Below, one piece after another: positions 27,311-47,559 of a stretch of 64,000 nucleotides of DNA. A program made the translations under genes and the position numbers. The notes under the pieces were generated by a model. It did not search any database. It was not told the origin of the DNA and worked only from the letters and a program-made list of their open reading frames with translations. Positions within the stretch are counted from its first letter, which is position 1, and each line of letters begins with the position of its first letter. The stretch comes from an uncultured Solirubrobacterales bacterium (GTDB lineage: Bacteria; Actinomycetota; Thermoleophilia; Solirubrobacterales; Solirubrobacteraceae), in contig CAVYFE010000010.1 of NCBI GenBank assembly GCA_963767695.1, positions 71,872-135,871 of the forward strand, written 5' to 3'.

Positions 27311-28724
27311 ATGATGCGCGTCGAGGTAACCGCGGGCGACCCGGACACGAGCGGCGCCGACCTCGTCGCAGTCGCGGCGGGAGCGCGGGCCTCGGAGCTC
27401 GGCGCCCCCGAGCGCGCGATCGCGGACGCCGATCCGGTCGCGATCGTCTATCAGCACTCGGCCCACCCCGGCGCCCCGCTCGCTGTCGTCGCGCTCGAGC
27501 CGGACGCCGAGGGACTGCGGACGGCTGCGGCGCGGGCAGTGCGCGCGTGCAGGGGTGGCGGGACTGTCGTGTGGGCGCTCGATGCATCCCTGCCGGTCAC
27601 CGTCGAGGAGCAGGTGCGGGCGCTGAGCGAAGGCGCCGTCATCGGCGGCTACGACGGCCGGCGCTGGCGAAGCGGCGAGCGGCCGCGCAGCGTGGAGCGC
27701 TTCGTGATCAGCGGCTGCGGCGGGGAGCTCGCACCCGTGGCCGATCGCGCCGCGCTCGTCGCGCGCTGGACGAACACCGCTCGCGAGCTCGTCGACGCCC
27801 CACCCAACGTGATGTCACCGACCGCGCTCGCGGACCGGGCGGCGGAGTTTGCGGGGCTCGCGGAGCGAGAGCATCGACCCCGCCGAGGCGGGGCTTGGCG
27901 CGCTCGCCGCGGTCGGCGCGAGCAGCCCGGCCGCGCCGCTGCTCCTGGTCCTCCGGCACGAGTCACCCGACGCGCAGGATGCACCGCGGCTGGCGCTCGT
28001 CGGCAAGGCTGTCACGTTCGATACGGGGGGCTACTTCCTCAAGTCGCAGACGGACATCGTCCGCCAGAAGGCCGATATGGCGGGCGGCGCGGCGGTCGTG
28101 GCAGCGCTCGGCGCGATCGCCGAGCTGGGGCTCCCGCTGGCGGTCACCGGTGTCGTACCGGCCTGCGAGAACATGCTCAGCGGCAGCGCAATGCGTCCGA
28201 CCGACGTCATCCCGACAGCTTCCGGCCTCACCGTCGAAGTGACGAATCCTGACGCTGAGGGGCGTCTGATCCTGGCGGATGCCCTGTGGTACGCGCGCCG
28301 CGACGGCGCGACCCACCTCGTGGACTTAGCGACCCTGACAGGCGCGTTGCGCGCCGGCATGGGCGATCTCTACGCCGGCGTCTTCGCGACAGACGAATCG
28401 TGGCGCGACGCCGTCGTCGATGCGGGCAACGCAAGCGGCGATCTTGCCTGGCCGTGGCCGCTTCACCCGCGCTATCGACCACTGATCGACTCGACGGTGG
28501 CCGACCTGCGCAACACAGCCGGAAAGAGCTTCGGCTTCCCGATTGTCGCCGCGACGTTCTTGGCGCAGTTCGCTGGCCAGGGGCCGTGGGCACACGTCGA
28601 CATGCTGGGCCCCGCGCTGCTCGACGAGGACCGCGGCGACGCGTTCGGGCGCGGCGCGACTGGCTATGGCGTCCGCCTGCTGGTCGAGCTCGCGACGCGC
28701 CTGAGCGCCGCGGCGACAACGTGA
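27311..28724 (+). CDS. M17 leucyl aminopeptidase family (apparent frameshift ~27860)
   Basis: LVGKAVTFDTGG, KADMAGGA, ENMLSG, NPDAEGRLILAD, DLATLTGA. Confidence 0.88.
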
Positions 28725-29386: not shown

Positions 29387-29944
29387 CTGATCGAGACCGT
29401 GGTGACCACGACCGGGAGCGACGGTGTCGTCAACTGCGGCGCGATGGGGGTGCGCTGGAGCGAGGAGGAGCTTGTCTTCTGGCCCTTCGAGGCCACGCGC
29501 ACATTGCGGAACCTGCGCCTTCGAGGCGAGGCGGTCGTGCATCTCACCGACGATGTGCTCCTGTTTGTGCGGGCCGCGCTGGGTCATCCACGCCCCGCTA
29601 TGCGCGCCGCGAGCGCGATCGGCGGCTCGGTGATCGAGGAGGCGAACTCCTGGCGGGAGGTAGTCGTGACCGAAATCACGCCCTGCGAGGGTGGGCTGGC
29701 TCGCTCCCGGGTGCGTGCGCGGGTCGTTGCGACCGGCACAGGCACGCGGCAGCCACTCGGCCTGTGCCGCGCCCGGCACGCCGCCGTCGAAGCGTCGATC
29801 TTCGCCAGCCGGATTAAATGGCTCGGCGCCGAGCGCGTCCAGACGGAACTCCACCGCCTTCAGGAGCTGGTGGACAAGACCGGCGGACCCCGCGAGCATG
29901 CGGCGATGGAGTACGTGCGACGCTACGTCGTCGAGCGAACGTGA
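29387..29944 (+). CDS. DUF447-family protein (found in methanopterin clusters); start uncertain
   Basis: IETVVTT...NCGAMG...PFEATRTLRNL...HLTDDVLLF; CRARHAAVEASI. Confidence 0.75.
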   Translation: MIETVVTTTGSDGVVNCGAMGVRWSEEELVFWPFEATRTLRNLRLRGEAVVHLTDDVLLFVRAALGHPRPAMRAASAIGGSVIEEANSWREVVVTEITPCEGGLARSRVRARVVATGTGTRQPLGLCRARHAAVEASIFASRIKWLGAERVQTELHRLQELVDKTGGPREHAAMEYVRRYVVERT

Positions 29945-30906
29945 CCGAGATCGTGGTCACCGCGCCGGCGCGGCTGCATTTCGGAATGCTCGATCCGGCG
30001 GGCCTTGGAGCGCGCCGCTTCGGGGGCTTTGGCGTGGGGGTCGAGTCTCCGCGAGTGGTCGTGGCGGTCAGGCGCCGGTCCGGGGACGCGGTCAGCGTGT
30101 CCGGATCAGAGCCCGAGCGTGCCACGACGTTCGCTCGCCAGGCGCGAAGGGCATTCGGGCTCAGCGGGGGCGTGGAGGTGAACGTGCGCGAGGCGATCCC
30201 GCCACACGTCGGGCTCGGGTCGGGCACCAAGCTGGGCCTGGCGATCGCGCGCGGGCTAGCCGAGCTCGCGGGCATCTCCGCGGGCCCGGAGCAGCTGACC
30301 GAGGCGAGCGGGCGTGGGGCGCGATCCAGCGTCGGCTGTTGGACGTTTGCCGCCCCGGGACTCGTGGTCGAGGCCGGCGTCCGCGACGGGGACTACATCA
30401 GCCCCGTGGTGGCCCGGTACCCCATGCCTGAGCGGTGGCGGTGCGTGCTCGCGCTGCCCCTCGGGGTGGAGGGAGTCTCCGGGGACGCGGAGGAGCGCTT
30501 CTTCGGTCAGCTGCGCGAGTCGCCGGCCGCCGAGCCGCGCGTGCCCCGGCTGCTGCTGACCGCGCTGCTGCCCGGCCTGCTGAGAAGCGACATCGATCAG
30601 TTCGGCGTCGCGCTCGCCCAGATCCAGCGCGAGATGGGATCGATCTTCGCCGCCCAGCAGGGTGGCGTGTTTCACCCGCGCGCGGCTCCGCTGGTCGACG
30701 CGCTGCTGGCCTTGGGCGTCGGAGCGGTGGGACAGAGCTCGTGGGGCCCTTCGGTCTACGGGATCGTCGATGGCCCCCAGGCCGCCGCCGACGTGGCCGA
30801 CCGACTGCGTGTCGCGGCGGGCGCCGGCACTGAGGTCAGCGTGGTCGACTTCGATCGCCGGGGCGCGTGGATTGCCCGCCGCGGCTCGGGGCAGGCGGCG
30901 GCATGA
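29941..30906 (+). CDS. mptG: beta-RFAP synthase (GHMP family)
   Basis: TAPARLHFGMLD, HVGLGSGT, GQSSWGP. Confidence 0.92.
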   Translation: MTEIVVTAPARLHFGMLDPAGLGARRFGGFGVGVESPRVVVAVRRRSGDAVSVSGSEPERATTFARQARRAFGLSGGVEVNVREAIPPHVGLGSGTKLGLAIARGLAELAGISAGPEQLTEASGRGARSSVGCWTFAAPGLVVEAGVRDGDYISPVVARYPMPERWRCVLALPLGVEGVSGDAEERFFGQLRESPAAEPRVPRLLLTALLPGLLRSDIDQFGVALAQIQREMGSIFAAQQGGVFHPRAAPLVDALLALGVGAVGQSSWGPSVYGIVDGPQAAADVADRLRVAAGAGTEVSVVDFDRRGAWIARRGSGQAAA

Positions 30907-34025: not shown

Positions 34026-34914
34026 CCAGCACCTCGCAAGTCGCGACGACCCGCTCTGTGAGATCCTCTTCGCAGGTCGACTGCAGTGCCTGCCAGCCGG
34101 GGATCCCGTTGACCTCCAGCACGACGATTTCCCCGTCGGGCGCGACGAGCAGGTCCACGCCGGCGACGTCGGCCTCCATGGCGGTGGCCGCCGCGAGCGC
34201 AACGCTGCGCTCGGCGTCGCTCAGCGTGACAGCGCGTGTACGGGCGCCACGCGCGACGTTGGCCCGCCACGAATCGGCCACGCGTTCCATCGCGCCGGCC
34301 ACCTCGCCCCCGACGACCAGCACCCGCAGGTTCCGGCGGCCGGAGGGCGCGATCGTGCGCTGCACGTAGTAGACCGTCCGCTCCAGCTCCAGGGCGCGGA
34401 ACACTCGGTGGGCCAAGTCGCGATCCTCGACGCGGACGATCCCGTTGCCCATCGCGCCGAACAGCGGCTTGACGACGACGTCGCCGCCCAGGCGCTCAAA
34501 CGCCTGCATGGCGCCGTCGTAGCGCTCGCAGACGATCGTCGGCGGAGTGGGCAGCCCGGCCCCGGCAAGCACGGCGCCGGCCCACGACTTGTCGACGGTG
34601 CGTTCGATTGCGCGGGGGCTGTTGACGCAGCGGACGCCGTGCTCGGCGAGGACGTGCAGCGCGTCCATGCGGAAGATCACCTGCTCCAGCGAGCCACGGG
34701 GGAGTCCACGGACGACCAGCAGGTCGAGCGCGTCGAGCACCACGCTCTCGGGCCCGAGCACGTGCACGTCTCCGTGCTCGTCGATCTCGGACCGCAATCG
34801 CGTCGCGGGGATGGCGAGTACCTCGTGGCCGCGAGCGGTCAGCGCGGTGAGCAGCCCGTGCGTGTGCCAGGAGCGGGAGGCGCCGAGCACTCCGACGCGC
34901 AGCCGTCGGATCAC
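34015..34914 (-). CDS. RimK-family ATP-grasp glutamate ligase (cofactor glutamylation)
   Basis: GSLEQVIFRMDAL, VNSPRAIERTVDK, KPLFGAMG, WRANVARG, LEVNGIPGW. Confidence 0.88.
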   Translation of the reverse strand: MIRRLRVGVLGASRSWHTHGLLTALTARGHEVLAIPATRLRSEIDEHGDVHVLGPESVVLDALDLLVVRGLPRGSLEQVIFRMDALHVLAEHGVRCVNSPRAIERTVDKSWAGAVLAGAGLPTPPTIVCERYDGAMQAFERLGGDVVVKPLFGAMGNGIVRVEDRDLAHRVFRALELERTVYYVQRTIAPSGRRNLRVLVVGGEVAGAMERVADSWRANVARGARTRAVTLSDAERSVALAAATAMEADVAGVDLLVAPDGEIVVLEVNGIPGWQALQSTCEEDLTERVVATCEVLVTA

Positions 34915-35862
34915 CGGGAGAACGAGCGCTCGAGCACCTCGGGAGCCAGCCCGCCTCCATGATGGGCCCGTCCGGACTCGGTGCTGGTGAGCGTGACCGC
35001 CGCGGGGCTGAACAGCATCGGATCGATGTCGTAGAAGTTCCAGTCGGCGGCGGCCAGCAGCTCCCCGAACGGGACGCCGAACGCCTCCGAGGCGGCGGAG
35101 GGGAGCCGCTGGGCCAGGTCGGCGACCTCCTCGTCCGCGGCCTCGATCCACAGGTGCACGGTCCCGCCGTACAGGATCGCGTCGTTGGTGCGTCCGATCG
35201 CCGCCGGGTCGTCGGCGGCCACCGGAGCGATGGGGCAACACCCCCAGCCGCCCAGTACCCGGGCCGGGTCAACGCCGAGCTCGTGCAGCTTGTGCAGCGC
35301 GGTCTCGACCACGCGGGCCGAGATCTGCACCGAGCCGCACAGGGACGCGGTTGGGGCGATCAGAAACGTAACCTCGGACGCCGGCACTCCGCAGCGCTGC
35401 GAGACCTTGTCGACGATCTCCGCCGGCGGGGCCTGCCGGGTCTCCAGGCAGAGGACCGCCCGCTCCGCCTCGCTCGCGCCAGGTCAGCTCCTCGAACAGG
35501 TCCTCCGCGCGTGCCAGGGCGCGCCCCGGGCCGCTGGCCATCGCGAAGAACTTCTCGTGCTCGAGCTTCCAGCCGGCGTACTGCGCGGCCAGGCACGCGG
35601 CCGCCGGCTCGTCCACGGCGACGCCGACGCCGGGCCAGGTTCGCTGGCCGACCGGTACCGCCAGGGGGTCGATCCGGCCCAGCCCACCCATGCAGGCGGC
35701 GGCGAAGCCCAGACCGGCCTGCACTCCGCCGCGCGCCTGAGCGCCGCAATCCACCAGGCGCGCGCCGGAGTCCAAGGTGCGGACCTCGATTCCCAGCGCG
35801 GCGGCGTCGGCGACCAGCGCATCCACCTGCGCCGCGGCACGTTCGTTCATCGACAGGCTCAT
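34911..35862 (-). CDS. mch: Methenyl-H4MPT cyclohydrolase (apparent +1 frameshift ~35470)
   Basis: ACMGGLG, CLAAQYAGW, AMASGPGRALA, APTASLCGSVQISARVVETALHK, GRTNDAILYGG, FYDIDPMLFSPA. Confidence 0.93.
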
Positions 35863-36681
35863 GGGCGCTCCTCCTCGTCAAAGATCAGGATCTCGCCCCG
35901 GCCGAGCTCGGTCCGGTCGCCGGACCATCTCGCCCAGGCTCCGCCCAGGAGTCGCCTCGCTGACCATCAGACCGAGCACGCGCGCCCGGCGCAGCTGCAG
36001 CCGGAGAGCGGGGGGGCGAAAGCGGGTGGCGAAGGCATAACTCGGCAGCGGCTCGAGCGTTGCCCCCGAGACGAGGCTTCCGCGCTTGTTGCCGAGCCCC
36101 GCCTCCGCCCCGATTCCGCCCAGCGCGATCACCGTGCCCGCCAGCATCCGCAGCCCGGCGCCGCTCCCCGTCCGGCCGCTGACCACCACCAGCCCGCGGC
36201 GCATGCCAGCGCCGGCCTCTTCTCCTGCGTCGCCCAACGCGACGATCTCGCCTCCGGTCATGCCGATGCGAGCTCCGGGGTAGGCAGCGCCGAGACGGGC
36301 GCCCGCATCACCCCAGATCCGCAGAAGACCGCCGGCCAGCTCGGCCCCCGCCCAAGCGCCGGCGTCGCCGCGCACGGCGATCTCACCGCCGCTCATACGG
36401 GCGCCGAGGTGGTCACCGCACGATCCCTCCACAAGCACCCGGCCATGCGACATGCCGGCGCCGATCCCGTCCACTTGGCGCAGGTCGCCTGCGAGCCACA
36501 GCTGCTCGTCGCCCGTGCCGGACACGTCGAACAGGTCGCCCAGGCTCAGCCTCTGGCGGCCGCAGCGCACGGTCATGGCGGCGACCTTGGCCGCATCGAG
36601 GCCTCGCAGTCGCTCCGGTGTCAGCGAGCCGGCCGGGATCCGCGCCGGCGGCTGGGTGCGGAGGGTGAGCCTCAGCGTCAC
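35859..36681 (-). CDS. fhcC: Formyltransferase/hydrolase complex subunit C (apparent frameshift near C-terminus)
   Basis: GXGM-x-GG beta-helix repeats, GARIGMTGG, MRRGLV. Confidence 0.9.
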
Positions 36682-37583
36682 GGCGGATCCCGCAGCTCGC
36701 TGAGCGGAAAATGGAATTCGCCGAGCTTGCCGCCGAAGTTGGCGGCGCTGACATGTGTCGCACCGCCGCCGGCGGCGGCGTGCAGTCCGCGGCGCATCGC
36801 TTCGCGCACTGCCTCCTCGGACACGCCGTCGATGACGATCTCGAACAGCGCGCCGACGCCCTCGGGAACGAGCGTGTCGTCGACCTGCACGCGCAGCGTG
36901 GGAGCGAGCTGGTGGTTGGTCGAGGCAGGCATCGAGGAGGAGGTGCGGGCGCCGACCTTGCTGCCGCTGCGAACGATGCCGCCTGGGAATGGGAGCGCGA
37001 TGCCCTCGCCGCGCATCGCGTCGGCCGCCGCCTGCGCGGCCGCCAGTGCAGCGTCCTCTTCGGCCGCCCCGATCACCAAGTTCCCTCCCCCGACGCCCCT
37101 GCCGACACCGACCGAATCGCAGACCAGGAACTCGCCCTCCATTACCGGGATCCGCCAAAAGCGCTGCCCCGCGATCACCTTGCTGGCCTGAAAGCCGTCG
37201 CCGAAGTAGCGCAGGCTCGATCCCAGCTTCGCAGTCCTCTCGGCGCCCGCCAACCCATCGAAGCAGGCCGTCGTGGGACAGGTCATCACGCACTGGCCCA
37301 CCCGGTCCAGGACTCGCTCGCCGACGCCCTCGCGGTCCATCGCGAACAGCAGCACGGCGACTCCCGGCCGGCCGTCAGGGGTCTGCTCCGCGCCGAGCAG
37401 GCGTTCGATCGCGGCCTCGCACTTGCAGCCGATCACCGACGTGGCAAAGCCGGTCGCGGAGCGGGCCGCCTCGTGCGCCCAGTCCGCGGTCGCGGCCGTT
37501 ATCACGAGCCGGGCGTAGCGCATCGGAAACGCCTCCGCGAACGTGTCGGCAACCTCGCTGGCACCGAGCCGATAGCCGCTCAC
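36678..37583 (-). CDS. fhcD: Formylmethanofuran:H4MPT formyltransferase
   Basis: DTFAEAF, TGFATSVIGCKCEA, TPDGRPG, RVGQCVMTCPTT, GVGGGN, SAANFGGKLG. Confidence 0.95.
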   Translation of the reverse strand: MSGYRLGASEVADTFAEAFPMRYARLVITAATADWAHEAARSATGFATSVIGCKCEAAIERLLGAEQTPDGRPGVAVLLFAMDREGVGERVLDRVGQCVMTCPTTACFDGLAGAERTAKLGSSLRYFGDGFQASKVIAGQRFWRIPVMEGEFLVCDSVGVGRGVGGGNLVIGAAEEDAALAAAQAAADAMRGEGIALPFPGGIVRSGSKVGARTSSSMPASTNHQLAPTLRVQVDDTLVPEGVGALFEIVIDGVSEEAVREAMRRGLHAAAGGGATHVSAANFGGKLGEFHFPLSELRDPP

Positions 37584-39229
37584 GCTCGGGCCTCCACTAT
37601 CCGTGCGGGCTCGCGCAGCGCCGGGTCGCGTACCGGGTAGTGCTCGAACCCCACCGTGTAGCGCTCGCCGAACAGCGGTTCCAGCACACTGCTCACCTCG
37701 GGATCGAAGGCGGCGCGGCTCGAGAGCAGCAGCCCGTCGTCGACCCGGCGCAGGTCGCCGTCCTCGACGGCCAACTCCCCGCCCTTGATCACGTACCGGG
37801 GGGTGGCGAACATCTCCTCGCGGTCGGCGCGATCGTGGTAGATCGTCACATCGGCGTCGGCACCGATCCCGAGGTGGCCCTTGTCGCGCAGGCCGAGGCG
37901 GCGCGCGGGAGCGGCGCGGGTGATGATCGCGACCTCGTTCAGGGTGTACTCGCGGTCCAGCCCGTCGGGCAGGGTGGTGCGCCGGATCGCTCGCTGGTTG
38001 GCGCGGCCCAGCTGATCCTCCCGGAAGGCACGGTCCATCAGCAGACGGATCAACTTCGGGTAGGAGAGGAACGAGCCGCCGTTGGGATGGTCGGTGGACA
38101 GCATCACCTGCCAGGGGTTCTGGCCCAGCAGGAACAGCTCTAGTCCGATCCCCCACTGCAGGGCGTGGACGTAGTTGCCCGCCCGGTACGTGTAGGGGAC
38201 GATCCCGCAGCCGGTCTCCACCTCGGTGTCGTGGTTGATCCATTTATCAGCGCCGAGGTCGCGCAGCACGGCCGAAAGTGGAGCGTCGGCCGTCATCGTC
38301 ACGGCCGGCCCGAACATCACCTGGCCGACGTCGGCGGTGATCTCGGGATGCTTGTCCAGGTATTCGACCAGCTCGGGCGCACGGGAGCGAGGCTGACCTC
38401 CAGGGCGGCCGCCGTAGCTGTGAAACTGGAGGTGGGCGAAGTGCGCCTGGCGGCCTGAGAGCGTGCGCATCGTCTCCAGCGTCGTGTCGGCGTTGCCGGA
38501 TACGCCGAGGTTGTTGGGGTGAACATGCACGGGATGCGGGAGCCCGAGCTCGTGCACGGCCCCGCCGATCGCCTCCAGCACCTGGCGCGGGGTGACCTCG
38601 AAGCCCGCCACCTCGTCGTCCAGCGAATGCACGTTGCCGTTCCCCTGCTTCCAGAGCTCCACCCCGCCGGGGTTGACGAGCTTGACGCCGTAGCCACCGG
38701 TGGCCTGAAGCCACCACGCGACGGCATCGCGCAGCTGGGGCGAGGCGGCGCCGCCGGACTGGCGGATCAGCTCGAACAGCACCTGGTTGTTGCCCATCAG
38801 GATCAGGAACGCCTTGTCGATCATCGGCGTGTCGCGCAGCTCCGAGAGCACGTGGCGCGCGGCCAACGGCGGGGCGGCCGCCTCCACGACGGTGGTGTAG
38901 CCCAGCAGCGAGTAGCGGTAGCCGGTGGTGAATGTGGAGGGGACCAAGCCGCCGGTGCCCGAGCGCAAGAGCTCGGTTCGATCCACGGGATGGTCGCGGC
39001 GCTCGTCGGGCGAGAGCTTGCGGGCGGCGTTTACCTTGGGACCGGCGATGTGGGCGTGTATGTCGACGCCGCCGGGCATCACCACCATCCCGCGCGCGTC
39101 GATCCGGCGGGCCTCGGGACCGACCTCGGCGACCACCTTGCCGTCCTTCAGGCACACATCGCGGACCTCGCCGTCGATCTCGTTGGCGGGGTCGTGGACT
39201 CGGCCGCCGCTGATCCGGATCGCCGTCAC
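37580..39229 (-). CDS. fhcA: Formyltransferase/hydrolase complex subunit A (amidohydrolase)
   Basis: PGGVDIHAHIAG, GVKLVNPGG, HVHPNNLG, HLQFHSYG, STDHPNGG. Confidence 0.95.
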   Translation of the reverse strand: MTAIRISGGRVHDPANEIDGEVRDVCLKDGKVVAEVGPEARRIDARGMVVMPGGVDIHAHIAGPKVNAARKLSPDERRDHPVDRTELLRSGTGGLVPSTFTTGYRYSLLGYTTVVEAAAPPLAARHVLSELRDTPMIDKAFLILMGNNQVLFELIRQSGGAASPQLRDAVAWWLQATGGYGVKLVNPGGVELWKQGNGNVHSLDDEVAGFEVTPRQVLEAIGGAVHELGLPHPVHVHPNNLGVSGNADTTLETMRTLSGRQAHFAHLQFHSYGGRPGGQPRSRAPELVEYLDKHPEITADVGQVMFGPAVTMTADAPLSAVLRDLGADKWINHDTEVETGCGIVPYTYRAGNYVHALQWGIGLELFLLGQNPWQVMLSTDHPNGGSFLSYPKLIRLLMDRAFREDQLGRANQRAIRRTTLPDGLDREYTLNEVAIITRAAPARRLGLRDKGHLGIGADADVTIYHDRADREEMFATPRYVIKGGELAVEDGDLRRVDDGLLLSSRAAFDPEVSSVLEPLFGERYTVGFEHYPVRDPALREPARIVEARA

Positions 39230-40449
39230 CGCCCGATCTCCGCGAGCAGCCGCGTCAGCAGCGCGGCCGCTGTCGGCGCGTCGCCCGCCAGCGGTGCCTG
39301 GAGCGCCAGCGGGACCCCGTCCAGCCGGTGCGCGGTGCCTCTCGCCTCCACGCCGGCGGCTGCGGTGCGGATCGACACCTCCGGATGAGCCCCCGGCCAC
39401 CCCGCCGGCAGGCTGCATAGCGCGATCTCCGCCACGGCCGCGGGCAGCCGCCCCGGGCCGCCCTCGATGCGCAGCGAAACGTCGATGCCCTCGCCGGTCT
39501 CGAGCGGCACGGTTGCAGTGACGAGCTCCGGATGACCGCTGGCGAGATCGACGTTCCCGCCATATCCGGTCTGCCAGGCCAGCACGTCCTGCGCGCCCCT
39601 GGTCCCGGCGGCGCTCGGCAGCGCCAGCGTGACCACGTGGCGTTCGTGGCACAGCGCGCGCACCAACTCGTGCAGCGCGAGCGCGCGGCGGTGACCGCCC
39701 GCGCCGGTGGCGAGGCCGGGTCCGTGCACAAACGCAACATGAGGCACGGCGCCCACGCGCTCCAGCAGCCGGCCCAGCTGCGCTTCGAAGTCGCTGGGCC
39801 CCGTCGCCAGCCTCCGCTGCATCGCGTGCAGCGTGATCAGCGCATCGAGGTCGCGCTCCCGCGCCCAGCGGAGCTGCAGGTCCGCGCGCGCAGCAGTGGC
39901 GGTAGCACGGTCGTCGACGACCACCAGGGTGCGCTCGGTACGGGTCCGGGAGGGCGCCGCGCCGCCGAAGCCGAGGCGATCGAGCAACCGCGGATGGGTG
40001 GTCTCGGGATCCTCGCGCCAGACGACGACCAGCTGCGAGCGATCGCGGATCTCGCCCAGGGTGGCGGTCGACCCGCCGCGCAGGGGTACCGCCGGGGCGC
40101 CGGGCCACGGGCCGGCCACGTTCTCGGTCGCGACCAGCGCGCCCAGGCGGTCGGCGAGGGCGACGGCCGCGCGCGCGTCCTCCACGGTGGCCCCGTCGAA
40201 GCCGTGCAGCAGCGGCCGGCGCGCCCCGCGCAGCAGCTCGACGGCACGGGTCAGTGCCGTCTCGACATCGGCCGGCTGACCGTTGACAGTGGCGGGTGCG
40301 CTCGCCGGCCGGCGCGTGCGCTCGGAGAACCACTCAGCGCCCAGGCGACAGGGGGGCTGCAGGCCCACGGCGTCGCCCGAGCGCTCCACGGTCACGTCGT
40401 CGCACAGGACGCCACAGCCCGCACAGGTAATCGGCCCGAACTCAGCCAC
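39226..40449 (-). CDS. fhcB: Formyltransferase/hydrolase complex subunit B (FwdB-like)
   Basis: TCAGCGVLCDD...PCRLG, TATLGEIRDR, VLAWQTGY. Confidence 0.88.
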   Translation of the reverse strand: MAEFGPITCAGCGVLCDDVTVERSGDAVGLQPPCRLGAEWFSERTRRPASAPATVNGQPADVETALTRAVELLRGARRPLLHGFDGATVEDARAAVALADRLGALVATENVAGPWPGAPAVPLRGGSTATLGEIRDRSQLVVVWREDPETTHPRLLDRLGFGGAAPSRTRTERTLVVVDDRATATAARADLQLRWARERDLDALITLHAMQRRLATGPSDFEAQLGRLLERVGAVPHVAFVHGPGLATGAGGHRRALALHELVRALCHERHVVTLALPSAAGTRGAQDVLAWQTGYGGNVDLASGHPELVTATVPLETGEGIDVSLRIEGGPGRLPAAVAEIALCSLPAGWPGAHPEVSIRTAAAGVEARGTAHRLDGVPLALQAPLAGDAPTAAALLTRLLAEIGR

Positions 40450-41548
40450 CGGCGAGCACCGCCTCGGGGAGGGCGGACAGGAGACGGGCCCCGCGCTCGG
40501 CGAGCTCCGGCGCGCTCGCGCTGGCCGAGACCAGAGTGCACACCGGCGCGCCTCGTTTGATCGTCTCACCGGCATGGGGGACATCGCGCACCAGGCCTGC
40601 CGGCCACCAGCCGGGATCGGGGACGCGAAGGTCGCGGTCGGCGAACAGCACCAGCTTCACCCTTGCACACCTCGTCGGCGGAGGTGTGCTGGCATTGGGG
40701 AGCCCGAGCCCGCGCGCTCCCCGTACGTGCGCCTCGAAGCTGCGGGGCCCGAACAGTTCCAGCCCGGCCGGCGGTCGTGGGTTGACCTCCAGCACCCAGG
40801 CGTTGCGCCCGTCCCAGACCGCGTCCACCCCGAACGCCCCGCACACGCCGAAGCGGGCCGCCACCTCGCCGCAGACCGCGCGCAGCTGGCCCTCGAGCTC
40901 GGCCCGCTGCGCGTCGGGCAGACGTGGGGGCGCCAGGTTGCCGGTCCACTGAAAGCCCGGGGGAAGATGGAGTTGCTCGGTGAGGCCGAGCACGGCGGCC
41001 CGCCGGCCGTCGCCGATCGCCACCGCCGAGCACGACAGCCCGTGGACGCGGCGCTGCAGGATCTCGGTGGGCCGCAGCGCGCCGCCCGCCCACCGGCGCA
41101 CCCCGCGCCCCCCGCCACCAAGGCGGGGCTTACGCAGCCACACCTCGCGATCCCGCTCTCGCCGGCCGGCGCCGGCGGGCTCTGGGAGCTCGTCGACCGA
41201 CCGCGTGTCCGGAGCGCGCGCGCCCGCGGCGCGTGCGGCGGCGCCCACCGCCCACGGGTCGCGCACGGCCGCCAGCAGCTCGGGAGGCGTTCCCAGCAGC
41301 TCCCGTCCGCCGGCCAGCCGCCTGACCAGGTCGGGCCGATTCTCAAACCCGCCGCCGTACACGACCGCGTCGGCGTCGATGCCCGCGGCGAGCGCCGCCA
41401 GAGCATCGTTGCTGTTCGCCGTCGCTCCGGGGGCGACCGCGCGCAGGTCGACGTCGCCGAAGCGGTCCAGCGCCGTCACCTCATAGCCGTCGGCGACCGC
41501 CAGCTGAGCGAGCATGCGCGCGCTGATCGCGACCACCAACACCCTCAC
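40442..41548 (-). CDS. ATP-grasp ligase associated with methanofuran/methanopterin clusters
   Basis: SARMLAQ, DRFGDVD, LRKPRLGGGG, FGVDAV, LEVNPRP. Confidence 0.8.
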   Translation of the reverse strand: MRVLVVAISARMLAQLAVADGYEVTALDRFGDVDLRAVAPGATANSNDALAALAAGIDADAVVYGGGFENRPDLVRRLAGGRELLGTPPELLAAVRDPWAVGAAARAAGARAPDTRSVDELPEPAGAGRRERDREVWLRKPRLGGGGRGVRRWAGGALRPTEILQRRVHGLSCSAVAIGDGRRAAVLGLTEQLHLPPGFQWTGNLAPPRLPDAQRAELEGQLRAVCGEVAARFGVCGAFGVDAVWDGRNAWVLEVNPRPPAGLELFGPRSFEAHVRGARGLGLPNASTPPPTRCARVKLVLFADRDLRVPDPGWWPAGLVRDVPHAGETIKRGAPVCTLVSASASAPELAERGARLLSALPEAVLAGG

Positions 41549-42406
41549 CGCAGCCTCACTCCCGACAGCAGCGCGGCCAGCAGCGTCCCCGCGACCAGGT
41601 CGGCGGTCGTCCCGGGATTCAGCCGGTTGTCGGCCCCCCGCAGCGAGGCGTCGAACTTCGCCAGCGAGCGGGATCCGTCGCGCACCTCGCGAGCCGCCGC
41701 GCTGACCGCCCGCGCCGCCGCGGCGCCCGCCTTGCGCGCGATCAGGGTGTCAGGATGGGAGGCCAGCAAGCCGACGTGGAGCGACACGATCGCGTCGAGC
41801 GTGGAGAGGCCGTTGCGCAGCGCATCATCCAGCAACGGCAAACCGGTGTCGAATACGATCGCGTAGCCGGTGGCGTATTCGGAGGCGATGCTGTCGCGGT
41901 GCGCGGCGGTCGCCATCGCCTCGCGCAGGGAGACGCGCGCCGGAGCTCCGACGTCGTGCTCAGGGGCCTCGCCGAGGCCGCCGGGATTGGCCCCGGCGAT
42001 CGCCGCGAAGGCCGCGGCGGCATCATCGACGCCAAGCTGCGCGAGGGTCGTCTCGGTAGCCAATCGCAGCGCTTCGCCGGCTCGCCGGGTCGCCGCGGCG
42101 CGGACCAGCGGCGCGAACAGGAGCACGATTCCCAAGTTGGTGTTGGCGCTCGGCGACCCGCGCCGTCGCCCCGACCCCGTCCGCGATCAGCTCGCCAACG
42201 GTCCGCTGTCGGGCCCGGCGGCGGGTGAACACCGGGCCGAGCGCGAGCGCCGAGCGCATCATGTCGGCGTAGGTCGTGTCGGAGAAGTCGTGGGCTGGCG
42301 TGATGTTGCCGGGCTTGGCGGCCGACACCTCCAGCACGCACGCGAGCTGGACGTGATGCTCAAGTAGGTCCCCGCTCAGTCTCGAGTGAGCTAGGGTTGC
42401 GTTCAC
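41545..42406 (-). CDS. CitG-like triphosphoribosyl-dephospho-CoA synthase family (apparent frameshift ~42155)
   Basis: [41 protein letters not shown]. Confidence 0.85.
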
Positions 42407-42439
42407 CGGCGTCACAATACGAGAGGGAGGTACACAAGC

Positions 42440-42952
42440 ATGGCCATCACGCTGGCAACCGGAGAGGCGCTGACCGGTGACGGTAACGAGCTGGCCCACA
42501 TCGACCTTCTGATCGGGTCCAAGAGCGGACCGGTCGGTGAGGCGTTCGCCAGCGCCTTCACCAACGAGAAGGAGGGTCACACCAACCTCATGGCGGTGGT
42601 CACCCCCAACCTGCCGGCCAAACCGGACACGGTGATCTCCAACAAGGTGACGATCAAGGGCGCGAAGCAGGCCGTGCAGCTGTTCGGTCCTGCCCAGGCC
42701 GCGGTCGCCCGCGCGGTGGTGGACTCGGTCGCCGAGGGAGTGATCCCCAAGGATCAGGTCGACGACCTGTGTCTGATCGTGGGCGTGTTCATCCACTGGG
42801 AGGCCGAGGACGACAAGAAGATCTTCGACTACAACTACGAGGCCGTGAAGCTGTCGATCGCCCGCGCCCTCAAGGGTGAGCCGAGCATCGACAAGGTGCT
42901 GGCCGAGACGCCCGCGGCGCGTCACCCGTTCGCCAGCGGCGCCGAGGGATAG
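42440..42952 (+). CDS. fae: Formaldehyde-activating enzyme
   Basis: [52 protein letters not shown]. Confidence 0.96.
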
Positions 42953-42972: not shown

Positions 42973-43735
42973 TTGACCGCGCAGACCGGAGAGTCGCCGC
43001 TCGCCGGTCTGCGCACAGTCGTCACCGGAGCCAGCTCCGGGATCGGGAGGGCGATCGCCGTCGCTTTCGCGGGCGCTGGCGCTCGCGTCGGCATCGGCTT
43101 CTGGCGCTCGTCGGGGGCCGCGCAAGCCCTGGCGAGCGAGCTCGGTCCCGTCCATCCCCTGCTGCGAGCGGACCTCAGCACGCTCGACGGCTGCACGTCG
43201 ATTGTGAGGCAGGCATTCGCCGCGCTGCGGCAACGTCGACGTCTGGGTCAACAATGCCGGCGCCGACGTGCTCACAGGCGATGCCGGCCGATGGCCGGCC
43301 GAGCGCAAGCTGCAGGCGTTGCTCGAGCTCGACCTCAAGGCGACGATCCGCTGCTCGCGGCTGGTCGCCGCCCAGATGCGGCCCGGAGGCTGCATCCTCA
43401 ACCTCGGCTGGGACCACGCCACCATCGACGGGATGGCGGGCGACGACCCCGAGCTGTTCGCCGGCGTCAAGGCTGGGGTGCTCGGCTTCTCCAAGTCGTT
43501 CGCGCGCTCGGTCGCACCCGACGTGCGCGTCAACGTGCTGTGCCCGGGCTGGATCGAGACCGCATACGGGGAGGACGTGGACCGCGACTTCTACGCCGAG
43601 ATCGCGGCGAAGACGCCGCTTCGCCGCTGGGGCCAGCCGCAGGACGTGGCGGGCGCCGCGGTCTGGCTGGCCTCGCCGGCCGCCGCCTTCGTCACCGGCC
43701 AGGCGGTCAATGTCAACGGCGGCGCAGTTGGCTGA
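42973..43735 (+). CDS. Atypical SDR oxidoreductase (apparent frameshift ~43230)
   Basis: TGASSGIG, VNNAGAD, F-A-G-V-K in place of YxxxK, VRVNVLCPGWI, TPLRRWG. Confidence 0.85.
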
Positions 43736-45068
43736 CACCCTGTTCCTCACCGGCCGCCTGGCGGAGCCGGCGCTCCGCAACGTCCTCTCCAAGCTGGGCA
43801 TCGACCACCAGGTCTCCGTGATGAACATCAGCGTTGCAGCGCTCATGACCACGCGCTGGATTGCCAGGCGGCTGGAGGTGCCGCCGGGGGTGGACAACAT
43901 CGTGATCCCGGGGCTGTGCGAGGGCGACGTCGACACGCTGCAGCAGGCGACTGGCCTGCCGGTGCGCAAGGGACCGGCCGACGTCCGCGCGCTGCCGGAG
44001 TGGTACGGGCGCGAGGCGGTCCGCGCAGAGCTCGGTCCGCGTGACGTGCGCGTGTTCGCCGAGATCAACCAGGTGCAGTCGCTCTCAGTCGAGCAGGTGA
44101 TCGATCGGGCGCAGGCCTACCGGGCGGAGGGAGCGGACGTGATCGACCTCGGCCTGTCGCTGGATCGCTCGTGGCTGGCCGAGGGGCCGCCGACGATCGC
44201 GGCGCTGCGCGAGCGCGGGCTGTCGCTCAGCATCGACACGCTTGATCCCGAGCACATTTGCATGGCCGACGCCGCCGGAGTGGATTATGTGCTCAGCCTC
44301 ACGCCGGCGACGATCGATCTCGCGAAGGACTTGCGCGCGACCCCGGTGCTGATCACTGAGGATCCCGACGACCTCGGCGGCCTCGACCGGTTGGCCGCCC
44401 GGATGGAGCAGCTGGACCGCCCGTACCTGCTCGACTCGATCCTGGCTCCGATCAACTTCGGCTTCGCCGCGTCGCTGGCGCGCTACGTCGAGGTCCGCCG
44501 GCGCCATCCGGAGGCCGAGCTACTGATGGGGATCGCCAATCTGACGGAGCTCACCGAGGCCGACTCGCCGGGGGTGACGGCGCTGCTGATCGGCTTCTGC
44601 CAGGAGGTTGGCATCGGCGCGGTGTTGACGACCGAGGTGATCGGGTGGGCGCGCGGGGTGGTGCGTGAGACGGTGCTGGCGGCACAGATCATGCACCTGG
44701 CCCAGCGCCAGGCACGGCCGCCCAAGCACATCGACTCCGGACTGGTCACGAGCAAGGACGAGTCGATGCGGGCACCCTCAGAGCAGGAGCTGCGCGCGAT
44801 GCAGACCCAGATCTCGGACGCCAACTACCGCCTGTTCGCCGACGCCGACTGGCTGTACGCGTTCAACGACGAGCGGTTTGTCCGCGAAGCGAACATGTAT
44901 GCGGTGTTCGATCAGCTCGACGTGGACGACGCCTCGCACGCCTTCTATCTCGGCAAGGAGCTGATGAAGGCCACGATCGCGCGCGGCTTGCACAAGAGCT
45001 ATCGCCAGGAGGGTCCCCTCGACTGGGGCCTGCTGAGCTTTCCCGAACCTCGACGGGAGGACATCTGA
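43728..45068 (+). CDS. Dihydropteroate-synthase-like pterin-binding protein (dihydromethanopterin synthesis)
   Basis: FLTGRLAEPAL, VAALMT, GADVIDLG, GIANLTELTEADS, HAFYLGKELMKA; TTG start. Confidence 0.85.
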   Translation: MADTLFLTGRLAEPALRNVLSKLGIDHQVSVMNISVAALMTTRWIARRLEVPPGVDNIVIPGLCEGDVDTLQQATGLPVRKGPADVRALPEWYGREAVRAELGPRDVRVFAEINQVQSLSVEQVIDRAQAYRAEGADVIDLGLSLDRSWLAEGPPTIAALRERGLSLSIDTLDPEHICMADAAGVDYVLSLTPATIDLAKDLRATPVLITEDPDDLGGLDRLAARMEQLDRPYLLDSILAPINFGFAASLARYVEVRRRHPEAELLMGIANLTELTEADSPGVTALLIGFCQEVGIGAVLTTEVIGWARGVVRETVLAAQIMHLAQRQARPPKHIDSGLVTSKDESMRAPSEQELRAMQTQISDANYRLFADADWLYAFNDERFVREANMYAVFDQLDVDDASHAFYLGKELMKATIARGLHKSYRQEGPLDWGLLSFPEPRREDI

Positions 45069-45928
45069 TGAACAAGATCCTGATCCAGCTGGACACCGAC
45101 CAGCACCCCAGTTCGTTCGACGCGATCGCCGCCTACGACGCGGATGTCGACGTGGTGCTGGGGTTCGGCCAGATCACCGCCGAGAACTTGGGGGAGGTCG
45201 TCCAGGGGGCGATCTTCCCGCGCGGACCCGACGGCCTGGCGAACACCGCCTTCTGGGTGGGAGGGTCCAAGGTGCGCGACGGCGAGGCGGTGTTCGCCGC
45301 TGCGCGCAAGCTGTTCTTCGAGCCCTTCCAGCCGTCGATCATGCTCGACTCGGACGGCTCCAACACCACCGCGGCGGCCTGCGTGGCCCGCGTCCGCGGC
45401 GCGGTGGCGCTGGAGGGCAGCCGGGCGGCGGTGATCGGCGTCGGCCCGGTGGGCCTGCGAACGGCGGAGCTGCTGCGACGCGAGGGCGCCGAGGTGACGC
45501 TGTTCACGTTCCCGCCCGATGCGATGGAAGGCGGCTATCGCCGCGCGTCGGGCATCGCGGTCGCGCAGGAGGCGGGGTTCGACGTCGTCGAGCCCGAGTC
45601 CAGCGACGAGCTCGACGCCGCGCTAGGCGGCCACGCGGCGGTGTTCGCCGCCGGTCCGGCGGGCACACAGATCCTGCGGCGCAGCGGCTGGGCGCAGGAG
45701 GGCGTGCGGGTGGTCGTCGACTACTCGGCGGCCGAGCCCGTGGGGGTGGAGGGCGTCGACCGGGGCGACGACCTGAAGGAGGAGGATGGCGTCCTCAAGC
45801 TCGGGGCGCTGGCCGTGGGGGGCCCGAAGATGAAGGTCCAGAAGCGCTGCGTGCAGCGGATGTTCGAGACCAAGGGCACCGTGCTGGATCTCGAGGGCGT
45901 ATACGACGTCGCGCTGGACACGCTGTGA
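45068..45928 (+). CDS. mtd: NAD(P)-dependent methylene-H4MPT dehydrogenase, MtdA/MtdC-like
   Basis: ILIQLDTDQHPSSFD, FPRG, FFEPF, MLDSDGSNTTAAA, LGALAVGGPKMK. Confidence 0.9.
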   Translation: MNKILIQLDTDQHPSSFDAIAAYDADVDVVLGFGQITAENLGEVVQGAIFPRGPDGLANTAFWVGGSKVRDGEAVFAAARKLFFEPFQPSIMLDSDGSNTTAAACVARVRGAVALEGSRAAVIGVGPVGLRTAELLRREGAEVTLFTFPPDAMEGGYRRASGIAVAQEAGFDVVEPESSDELDAALGGHAAVFAAGPAGTQILRRSGWAQEGVRVVVDYSAAEPVGVEGVDRGDDLKEEDGVLKLGALAVGGPKMKVQKRCVQRMFETKGTVLDLEGVYDVALDTL

Positions 45929-46087: not shown

Positions 46088-46477
46088 TCAGCCGCCGGCG
46101 GGCGCGGACGATTTCGAGAACACGAACTTGCCCATCGGCCCGTCGAGTGGGCTGTCCGGCTCGGGCCGCCACAGGATCGTGTCCTCGATCTTGCGCGCCA
46201 GCGTGAAGTCCTTGTCGGTGATGCCGCCCGCCGAGTGCGTGGCCAGCTTGACCCACAGCTTTCCCCAGGTGACGTTCAGGTCGGCGTGATGGCCTGCGGC
46301 CTCGCACAGGTACCCGACGGCGTTGACCGCCATCAGGGTCGAGGGCCAGCCGTCAGTGTTGTACTTGCGCCGGATCCACTTGTCCTCGTAGTACCACTCG
46401 TCGAGGCCGTACTCCGAGAACTTCGCGGGGATCTCGTCCTCGCTGTAAGTGCGCGGCTTCTCCTTGATTGTGCTCAT
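46088..46477 (-). CDS. Pterin-4a-carbinolamine dehydratase family
   Basis: WIRRKY, EAAGHHADL, LATHSAGGITDKDFTLARKIE. Confidence 0.88.
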   Translation of the reverse strand: MSTIKEKPRTYSEDEIPAKFSEYGLDEWYYEDKWIRRKYNTDGWPSTLMAVNAVGYLCEAAGHHADLNVTWGKLWVKLATHSAGGITDKDFTLARKIEDTILWRPEPDSPLDGPMGKFVFSKSSAPAGG

Positions 46478-46488
46478 GCTCGAATGAT

Positions 46489-47559
46489 ATGCCCCGCGTA
46501 GCCGGTGTCGATCCGGGAACGGTCTCGTTTGATCTGTGCGTGTTGCAGGACAGCGAGCCGGTCGTCGAGCAGGTGTTCGAGACCGGGTCGCTGAGCGAGG
46601 ACAGCAGGCCGCTGTTCGACGCGCTCGCCCGCCACGGACCCTACGACCTGGTCTACGGTCCGAGCGGCTACGGCCTGCCGCTGGTGGCGGCCGCCGATGT
46701 GGGTGAGCGCGAGCTGGCCGAGATGGTGCTCGTGCGCCCGGACGAGGCGCACGCCGACGCCGGGATCAGCGGGATGCGATCGCTGCTCCGCTCGCTGGCG
46801 CAAAGCGGCCTTCCGGTCACGTTTGGTCCCGGCGTCATCCACCTGCCGACGGTTCCGCGGCAGCGCAAGTACAACCGGATCGATCTCGGGACCGCGGACA
46901 AGGTCTGCGCGGCGGCTTGCGCGATCGTCGACCAGTCCGCCCGTCGGGCGATCCCGCTGCACCAGACGGCGTTCGTCCTGCTGGAGCTGGGGGGCGCCTT
47001 CACCGCGGCGCTGGCCGTCGACCACGGACAGATCGTCGACGGCATGGGCGGGTCGTCGGGACCCGTGGGTATGCGGGCCGCCGGGGCCCTGGACGGCGAG
47101 CTGGCTTACCTGCTGGCGCCGGCACTACGCAAGCAGACCCTGTACAGCGGTGGAGCCATCGATCCGGCCGGCGCCCTCGACATGACCGACCTCCAGGCGC
47201 TGTGGGTCTCAGCCGCCCACGCTGAAGGCTGGACGGCACTGCTCGAGGCCGCCGCCAAAGCGGTGCGCGCCCTGGTGGTGAGCGTCCCGATCCCGCACGA
47301 GATCGTCGTTTCCGGCCGTCTGGCCCGCCTGCCCGAGCTGATCGCGACCCTCGGCTCGTCGCTGGGAGCCGTCGCCCCGGTGGTCGCCCTCGTTCCGGGC
47401 CGGGCGAGCGCCGCCGCGTGCGGTGGCGCCCTGCTGGCCGATGCGTTGGCCGGCGGCCGGAACGCGCCCCTCGCGGAGGTGCTGAGGCTGCGCGAGTCGA
47501 GCGGCACCGTGCTCGACTATCTGCGCGTGGCCGGCGCCCAGACGATCTCGCTGGGCTGA
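46489..47559 (+). CDS. DUF1464-family protein (ASKHA/butyrate-kinase-like)
   Basis: AGVDPGTVSFD, GPSGYGLP, VIHLPTVP, NRIDLGTADK, ELGGAFTA. Confidence 0.8.
   Translation: MPRVAGVDPGTVSFDLCVLQDSEPVVEQVFETGSLSEDSRPLFDALARHGPYDLVYGPSGYGLPLVAAADVGERELAEMVLVRPDEAHADAGISGMRSLLRSLAQSGLPVTFGPGVIHLPTVPRQRKYNRIDLGTADKVCAAACAIVDQSARRAIPLHQTAFVLLELGGAFTAALAVDHGQIVDGMGGSSGPVGMRAAGALDGELAYLLAPALRKQTLYSGGAIDPAGALDMTDLQALWVSAAHAEGWTALLEAAAKAVRALVVSVPIPHEIVVSGRLARLPELIATLGSSLGAVAPVVALVPGRASAAACGGALLADALAGGRNAPLAEVLRLRESSGTVLDYLRVAGAQTISLG

Follow-up and report, generated by a model that had tools for sequence, protein, structure and literature searches.

The subject of this report is a short-chain dehydrogenase/reductase (SDR)-like coding region at positions 42973–43735, forward strand, of a 64,000-nucleotide stretch of an uncultured Solirubrobacterales genome (contig CAVYFE010000010.1; hereafter the window), which lies between fae upstream and a gene for a DUF6513/dihydropteroate synthase (DHPS)-like protein downstream. 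We propose, with a probability of roughly 0.6, that this SDR and its relatives, which we call the W–D clade after a conserved residue pair, are dihydromethanopterin (H2MPT) reductases that have non-orthologously replaced AfpA/DmrB or DmrA, a proposal drawn from gene distribution and genomic context. That the clade is dedicated to the biosynthesis of tetrahydromethanopterin (H4MPT) in some capacity we consider highly probable. H4MPT-linked formaldehyde oxidation is central in bacterial methylotrophy and in formaldehyde detoxification by Planctomycetes, and to our knowledge the enzyme that forms the active tetrahydro form of the cofactor has been identified in archaea and in some Proteobacteria only. 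An earlier note on this DNA had described an atypical SDR between fae and the DHPS-like gene, overlapping the latter, and had suggested that it is a third, non-orthologous H2MPT reductase. The arrangement is as described, with fae at 42440–42952 on the same strand and the SDR stop codon (TGA, 43733–43735) overlapping the start of the DHPS-like gene (TTG 43728 or ATG 43710) by 8–26 nt. The functional suggestion agrees with the distribution of the gene, with two reservations, namely that the copy in the window is broken and that the reaction is deduced from distribution. We found no proposal of an SDR-type, or of any third, H2MPT reductase in the searchable literature.

The SDR was found only in genomes that have mch. 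Using PF02289 as the mch profile, TIGR02699 as the AfpA profile and an SDR search threshold of E ≤ 1e-66, just above the level that FabG-like proteins reach, the SDR and mch were detected in an identical set of 6 genomes among 41 relatives of the window's genome (24 of the same genus, 16 of the same order), with no SDR in the 35 mch-negative genomes and with AfpA never above about 30 bits in any of the 41. Across 401 Thermoleophilia genomes, mch is present in 40; AfpA is encoded by 29 of these (28 above the curated cut-off), all belonging to two families (f8 and f10) and bearing afpA about 13 kb from mch, and the SDR is encoded by three, all of the window's own family. No mch-positive genome has both proteins, eight have neither, and none of the 361 mch-negative Thermoleophilia has AfpA or the SDR. 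The 11 Afp-negative genomes include all three with the SDR, for which the probability by chance is about 0.017 (hypergeometric). The same association is seen in 301 Planctomycetota, where mch and the SDR, often 1–2 Mb apart, were found in exactly the same 25 genomes and the SDR in none of the remaining 276; AfpA gave no match in 18 of 18 SDR-bearing planctomycete genomes. The earlier note had proposed to check, in genomes with mch, whether the SDR and dmrA/dmrB exclude each other, and the profiles agree with this, in that the SDR is found only with mch and never with AfpA.

Comparison of gene content identifies what is exchanged. Afp-type clusters of Thermoleophilia (L123–L125) contain genes for HisA/F-like, CitG-like and RimK-like proteins, mch, fhcCDAB, and genes for a DUF1464 protein, a DHPS-like protein and an MptA-type GTP cyclohydrolase, and further hold an ATP-grasp gene, mtdB, a DUF447 gene, mptG and afpA. 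The SDR-type clusters have the same gene set minus afpA, with the addition of the SDR, fae and sometimes a gene for pterin-4a-carbinolamine dehydratase (PCD). The replacement of AfpA by the SDR is the only consistent exchange between the two cluster types, and non-orthologous displacement is the most economical reading. The earlier note had seen no gene for DmrA, a protein of the dihydrofolate reductase (DHFR) fold, or for DmrB/AfpA in the window, and had held that finding one elsewhere in the genome would count against the proposal; the absence extends to the whole genome (4.5 Mb, 92.7% complete). DHFR_1 (PF00186) had no match in the window, in this genome or in the 41 relatives, with positive controls recovered. 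AfpA/DmrB was likewise found neither in the window nor in the rest of the genome: TIGR02699 reached only 24.5 bits, on a 433-aa open reading frame (ORF) of contig C16 that is probably CoaBC, and a Thermoleophilia AfpA used as a tblastn query retrieved nothing.

Gene order ties the SDR to HPPK (hydroxymethyldihydropterin pyrophosphokinase) and the DHPS-like gene. In Solirubrobacteraceae (the window, the syntenic locus L010, G074 and G347) the order is fae, SDR, DHPS-like gene, mtdB, and the SDR stop codon overlaps the start of the DHPS-like gene. Planctomycete loci were taken as the best 80 of at least 596 relatives (pattern scan, one genome per species); almost all of these 80 are labelled Planctomycetota (Gemmataceae, Pirellulales, Planctomycetaceae and Isosphaeraceae), and they include the cultured isolates Adhaeretor mobilis HG15A2 (L070) and Bythopirellula polymerisocia Pla144 (L098). 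In 42 of them the SDR immediately precedes the DHPS-like gene, with both on one strand. HPPK precedes the SDR in 21, and in all 21, which are of Gemmataceae type, the two form a single in-frame fusion encoding a bifunctional protein of about 415 aa (loci within L032–L090, e.g. L033 9497–10714); Pfam recognises both HPPK and SDR domains in two database proteins. Larger H4MPT clusters surround the gene in five planctomycete loci. Another metagenomic lineage (L111) has the operon mch–RimK–CitG–PTPS–SDR–PCD–DHPS-like–pabB–pabA–pabC–DUF447–mptG, PTPS denoting a 6-pyruvoyltetrahydropterin synthase homologue, and PTPS and the SDR are adjacent again on a short contig.

The copy in the window is not one open frame. 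The earlier note treated 42973–43735 as a single gene and passed over a frameshift without remark, although the 763 nt of the span do not divide into whole codons and the codons after the first 85 or so lie in the frame of 42974. The N-terminal part (86 codons, 42973–43230, forward strand, frame of 42973) starts with TTG and contains the dinucleotide-binding motif TGASSGIGRAIA; it was recognised by Pfam and by its match to L010, residues 1–85 of whose SDR align with 42973–43227 in frame 1. A single extra C at 43231 shifts the frame, and the C-terminal part (167 codons plus stop, 43232–43735, forward strand, frame of 42974) carries NVDVWVNNAG, NLGWDHA, ELFAGVK and PGWIET. Translation from the TTG at 42973 accordingly gives MTAQTGES...TGASSGIGRAIA...FAAL and nonsense thereafter, and the frame of 42974 reads ...NVDVWVNNAGADVLTG...ILNLGWDHATIDGMAGDDPELFAGVKAG...LCPGWIETAYG...NVNGGAVG before its stop at 43735. 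The extra base, bracketed in CTGCGG[C]AACGTC, is missing from all relatives examined: from five same-genus genomes, from the same-genus genomes G015 and G012 in DNA alignment, from L010 and G015 by blastn, and from contigs about 95% identical in two soil metagenomes (runs X1 and X2). The five same-genus genomes encode an uninterrupted orthologue of 253 codons at 78–83% identity, and public data contain more than 120 intact 253-aa orthologues at 82–92% identity, labelled Solirubrobacteraceae or Solirubrobacterales and annotated at source as '3-oxoacyl-ACP reductase' or 'SDR family oxidoreductase'. One same-genus genome, G015, has the SDR and mch each in two copies on different contigs (G015:C5:547092-547850; G015:C20:7137-7727).

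The broken SDR does not stand alone. A tblastn search with the proteins of L010 (GCA_963812635.1) showed four window genes, mch, fhcC, the CitG-like gene and the SDR, to be split between frames, and a fifth split affects an M17 aminopeptidase-like gene near 27.9 kb. The insertion sites (27850–27936, 35469, 35951, 42120 and 43231) are spread over about 16 kb; each of the five genes has a net insertion of one base relative to aligned relatives, and none of the sites is in a long homopolymer. The same test elsewhere in the genome (tblastn with ORFs filtered on codon-position GC) found only 3 such events in 119 genes, so that the stretch from 27.9 to 43.2 kb is locally enriched in frame breaks. 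With the extra base removed, the ratio of non-synonymous to synonymous substitution rates (dN/dS) of the SDR is 0.17–0.22, a sign of purifying selection and equal to that between intact orthologues, and mch is also split in other few-contig metagenome-assembled genomes (MAGs) of Thermoleophilia (G016, G074, G227, G301 and G422). We favour a consensus error or assembly artefact as the probable source of the break in the SDR, because a gene outside methylotrophy is also hit, dN/dS is not raised and other MAGs show a split mch; together with the uniform one-base character of all five events, these observations also weaken a reading as pathway-specific decay. A very recent real lesion, which would make the SDR a pseudogene, is the more doubtful explanation. 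The five events in one stretch of 16–24 kb, against 3 in 119 genes elsewhere, could reflect recent decay as well as a locally poor consensus. Programmed frameshifting is ruled out, since every orthologue has its 253 codons in one uninterrupted frame. The best public read sets hold only 0.29 of the sequence words, the strains in them being about 95% identical.

The frame-corrected product matches the classical SDR profiles, scoring 154 bits with PF13561 (adh_short_C2; cut-off 27) and 97 bits with PF00106. No specific NCBIfam model scored above its cut-off; the pteridine-reductase model NF006598 gave 111.3 bits against a cut-off of 288 and ranked about 23rd among SDR models. An AlphaFold model of a 92%-identical intact orthologue, the 253-aa soil sequence P0003 (pLDDT 92.3, pTM 0.92), superposes on FabG-type SDRs with a template-modelling (TM) score of 0.85, and on Trypanosoma brucei PTR1, ranked 35th by Foldseek, with 0.81, while a sequence search of the PDB likewise returned FabG-type SDRs first (218 bits). 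Because FabG and PTR1 are about equally close, neither fold nor PDB match discriminates between functions. The earlier note had invoked FolM, PTR1 and dihydropteridine reductase (DHPR) as pterin reductases of the SDR superfamily, which holds as an analogy only, the protein being nearest to FabG-type SDRs in both sequence and fold.

What sets the protein apart is its active site. The cofactor motifs TGASSGIG and VNNAG of the Rossmann fold are present, and an Arg after strand 2, with no acidic residue there, suggests from the sequence a preference for NADPH. The catalytic tetrad Asn-Ser-Tyr-Lys of SDRs is not conserved: Asp, Trp-Asp and Phe replace the first three residues, and Lys alone is kept. 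Alignment with classical SDRs bears out the two substitutions pointed out in the earlier note, N-L-G-W-D at the position of the classical N-x-S-S and E-L-F-A-G-V-K at that of Y-x3-K. HMMER offers an alternative in which W-D-Q is a three-residue insertion with Ala at the Ser position; the Ser is lost in both alignments. An exhaustive search of 1.8 billion representatives recovered a W–D subfamily that is coherent at 40–58% identity, with the signature NNAGAD(I/V)LTG, VD(L/V) at the tetrad Asn, N-x-(G/S/A)-W-D-(Q/H)-A and VRVNxxxPGWIxT, where classical SDRs in the same alignment have NISS and YxxxK at the corresponding columns. The W–D pair is invariant in 120 of 120 close orthologues, in which the Tyr position is occupied by F (108), H (6), L (3) or Q (3); W-D or W-N is present in 79 of the 150 best representatives, and of those 79, 66 have F and 11 have Y at the Tyr position. 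Since this position varies (F/H/L/Q) while W, D and K are conserved, it is evidently not catalytic. The Asp-Tyr-Lys triad of PTR1 and FolM is likewise incomplete, with an Asp after the Trp and the Lys present and the Tyr replaced in all 120 close orthologues. New invariant residues lie in the active-site segments instead, namely W146, D147, D120, W193 and R185 (P0003 numbering). These sequence features place the product in a distinct and divergent W–D subfamily of classical SDRs.

A mechanism consistent with these features would have an NAD(P)H-dependent SDR reduce the 7,8-dihydropterin ring of H2MPT, or of an earlier dihydropterin delivered by the DHPS-like enzyme. NAD(P)H, probably NADPH, would donate a hydride to C6 of that ring, and the conserved Asp and Trp may bind or protonate the pterin in place of Ser/Tyr acid–base catalysis. 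The HPPK fusion and the coupling to the DHPS-like enzyme raise the possibility that the ring is reduced in the condensation product, before H2MPT is complete. Whether W–D SDRs are thus an independently evolved reductase class, performing Asp/Trp-assisted, DHFR-like hydride transfer in association with HPPK and the DHPS-like enzyme, we regard as an evenly balanced question.

Several observations weigh against an H2MPT reductase. The SDR copy in the window is frame-broken, and its family has lost three of the four canonical catalytic residues, for which reason catalysis itself is something that we infer. FabG is at least as close to the protein as PTR1, FolM or DHPR is. In the SDR searches only the 6–8 best first-look candidates per genome were scored. 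The exclusivity within Thermoleophilia amounts to effectively one evolutionary event, because the three SDR genomes belong to one family. Eight mch-positive Thermoleophilia have neither AfpA nor the SDR; most of these are fragmented or incomplete, but they include both sampled members of genus g102 (G242 and G296), and mch-positive genomes of this kind may hold yet another reductase. (The remaining six are G238, G252, G301, G139, G245 and G441.) The SDR of locus L113 (8989–9756) has rplM–rpsI, gltA and mdh for neighbours, and a span of 12.5 kb there contains no H4MPT gene. Finally, the close association with HPPK and the DHPS-like gene is what one would also expect of an enzyme for some other step near them.

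Such a step might be another reduction in H4MPT biosynthesis, for example one that converts the ribofuranosyl-aminobenzene part of the DHPS-like enzyme's product into its ribityl counterpart, a step for which we know of no assigned gene in White's archaeal pathway. The translational coupling of the SDR to the DHPS-like gene, the pairing of the two genes at 42 of the 80 planctomycete loci and the in-frame HPPK fusion are all compatible with this, and strict co-occurrence with mch suits any pathway-specific step equally well. The ribityl step, however, is one that all H4MPT producers must carry out, and the 29 Afp-type Thermoleophilia have no SDR although their clusters otherwise hold the same genes. 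Two additional enzymes would have to be postulated, a dihydromethanopterin reductase for the lineages with the SDR and a ribosyl reductase for those with AfpA, where an H2MPT reductase requires none. Moreover, the unassigned genes that are universal to these clusters (DUF447, DUF1464, CitG-like and HisA/F-like) are available for universal steps, and we consider this alternative unlikely. Less likely again is a role in recycling, in which the SDR would act like DHPR, itself an SDR, as a quinonoid-dihydromethanopterin reductase that restores oxidised H4MPT together with PCD in aerobes. A PCD gene does stand beside the SDR or the DHPS-like gene in the window, L010, G074, L111 and four planctomycete loci, but those four are the only ones of the 80 with PCD within 10 kb, and the G347 cluster has none; DHPR also keeps the YxxxK that the W–D clade has lost, and recycling leaves both the AfpA exclusivity and the HPPK fusion unexplained.

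Loss of the tetrad Asn, Ser and Tyr, and the variation of the Tyr position among close orthologues (F, H, L, Q), could alternatively mean that the SDR is catalytically dead and that it binds NAD(P)H or a pterin while serving HPPK or the DHPS-like enzyme as a structural or regulatory subunit. This is very improbable given that the Lys and the motifs of the cofactor site are strictly conserved, that the active-site segments have acquired the invariant residues W146, D147, D120, W193 and R185, and that dN/dS is about 0.2; it would also leave the complementary distribution with AfpA unaccounted for. A FolM-like substitute for DHFR in folate metabolism was considered as well, there being no DHFR_1 homologue in the 41 genomes of the order and a sub-threshold match to the pteridine-reductase model. 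It is hardly credible and was rejected, because the SDR follows mch and not the loss of FolA: the 35 relatives that lack both FolA and mch have no such SDR, and planctomycetes carry the SDR despite an ordinary DfrA-type DHFR (PMC6193120).

By its defining features the SDR is outside the PTR1/FolM, DmrA and AfpA/DmrB families. With DmrA of Methylorubrum extorquens AM1 it shares the proposed reaction, the proposed nicotinamide cofactor, company with H4MPT genes and occurrence in lineages without AfpA; DmrA, however, has a DHFR fold and a biochemically proven function, whereas the SDR has a Rossmann fold and a proposed function, in an order with no DHFR_1. AfpA/DmrB of Burkholderia and DmrX of Methanosarcina would occupy the same place in the pathway according to the profiles, and are likewise encoded in cofactor-biosynthesis operons, but they are flavoproteins in fold and use FMN, where the SDR has a Rossmann fold and would use NAD(P)H, and there is no sequence similarity between them; afpA adjoins mptG, and the SDR adjoins the DHPS-like gene. 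PTR1 of trypanosomatids and FolM of Escherichia coli resemble the W–D clade in fold, in a role linked to pterins and in having an acidic residue in the segment that normally carries the catalytic Ser. Both keep the Tyr of Tyr-x3-Lys, at which the W–D clade mostly has Phe, and the clade's score falls below the NF006598 cut-off. FabG-type SDRs provide the best sequence and structure matches and the source annotation, but differ in the tetrad, which changes from N-S-Y-K to D, W-D (or Ala), F and K, and in context, since the W–D SDR has no fatty-acid genes around it and follows mch. In Helicobacter pylori, as Levin et al. reportedly described in 2007, DHPS is fused to a flavin-dependent dihydropteroate reductase. 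That fusion resembles the present case as a non-DHFR reductase coupled to the DHPS step, with the pterin ring reduced after condensation, and differs in being flavin-dependent, in belonging to the folate pathway and in its unrelated domain.

Published work frames the gap that an SDR-type H2MPT reductase would fill. Complementation of a dmrA mutant has been described for AfpA and activity on H2MPT for DmrB and DmrX, and the DHFR homologues of planctomycetes all group with DfrA and not with DmrA (PMC6193120), while no Afp gene was recognised in Planctomycetes (Chistoserdova 2016, PMC5020050). If correct, the assignment would close the reductase gap noted for Planctomycetes from 2004 to 2016 and extend the answer to Actinomycetota, would correct thousands of '3-oxoacyl-ACP reductase' annotations, and would add a rare SDR that works without the catalytic Ser and Tyr. 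It would also provide a marker of methylotrophic potential in soil metagenomes of Actinomycetota and Planctomycetota. As a single protein of about 250 residues that should be readily expressed, the SDR makes the reductase gap directly testable.

The surrounding genes of the window form an H4MPT cluster. On the forward strand, fae (42440–42952), for formaldehyde-activating enzyme, scores 235 bits with PF08714 and 249 bits with TIGR03126, and the DUF6513 plus DHPS-like (MJ0301/MptH-type) pterin-binding protein (43710–45068, from ATG 43710 or TTG 43728) matches PF20123 and reaches 154 bits with TIGR00284, below the cut-off of that model. An MtdB-like methylene-H4MPT dehydrogenase gene follows (45068–45928, forward; PF09176), and then a PCD homologue on the reverse strand (46088–46477; PF01329, 79.5 bits) and a DUF1464 gene of the H4MPT/methanofuran cluster on the forward strand (46468–47559; Pfam). 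Upstream of fae, the reverse strand holds the CitG-like gene (41551–42415), split by a one-base insertion near 42120 as seen by tblastn and blastn against relatives, the ATP-grasp gene of the cofactor cluster (40442–41548; profile and comparison with the syntenic locus), and mch (split near 35469), fhcC (split near 35951), fhcD, fhcA and fhcB (together 34914–40437; comparison with the syntenic locus). Genes for a DUF447 protein and a β-ribofuranosylaminobenzene 5'-phosphate (RFAP) synthase-like GHMP kinase (MptG) are further away on the forward strand (29387–30870; tblastn and profile). Elsewhere in this genome, an MptA-like gene is on contig C2, HPPK on C27 and pabAB on C3; AfpA and PTPS were not found in it. 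In the Afp-type clusters, the MptA/FolE2-type GTP cyclohydrolase gene stands between fhcA and the DHPS-like gene (L125, 7937–8956, reverse strand).

The PCD homologue adjoins the SDR or the DHPS-like gene in the window, L010 and G074 of Actinomycetota, in L111 (4805–5173) of another lineage and in the planctomycete loci L031, L037, L038 and L042. Most SDR loci lack it, as do the Afp-type clusters. A W–D member in L114/L115 (10001–10774) lies near moaA, mobA and mobB, with no visible H4MPT cluster. A Gemmataceae-like fused HPPK–SDR is also present on a 241-kb contig (L050, CAYRFQ010000002.1) of a MAG labelled Alcaligenaceae, which could be due to mis-binning, mislabelling or horizontal transfer.

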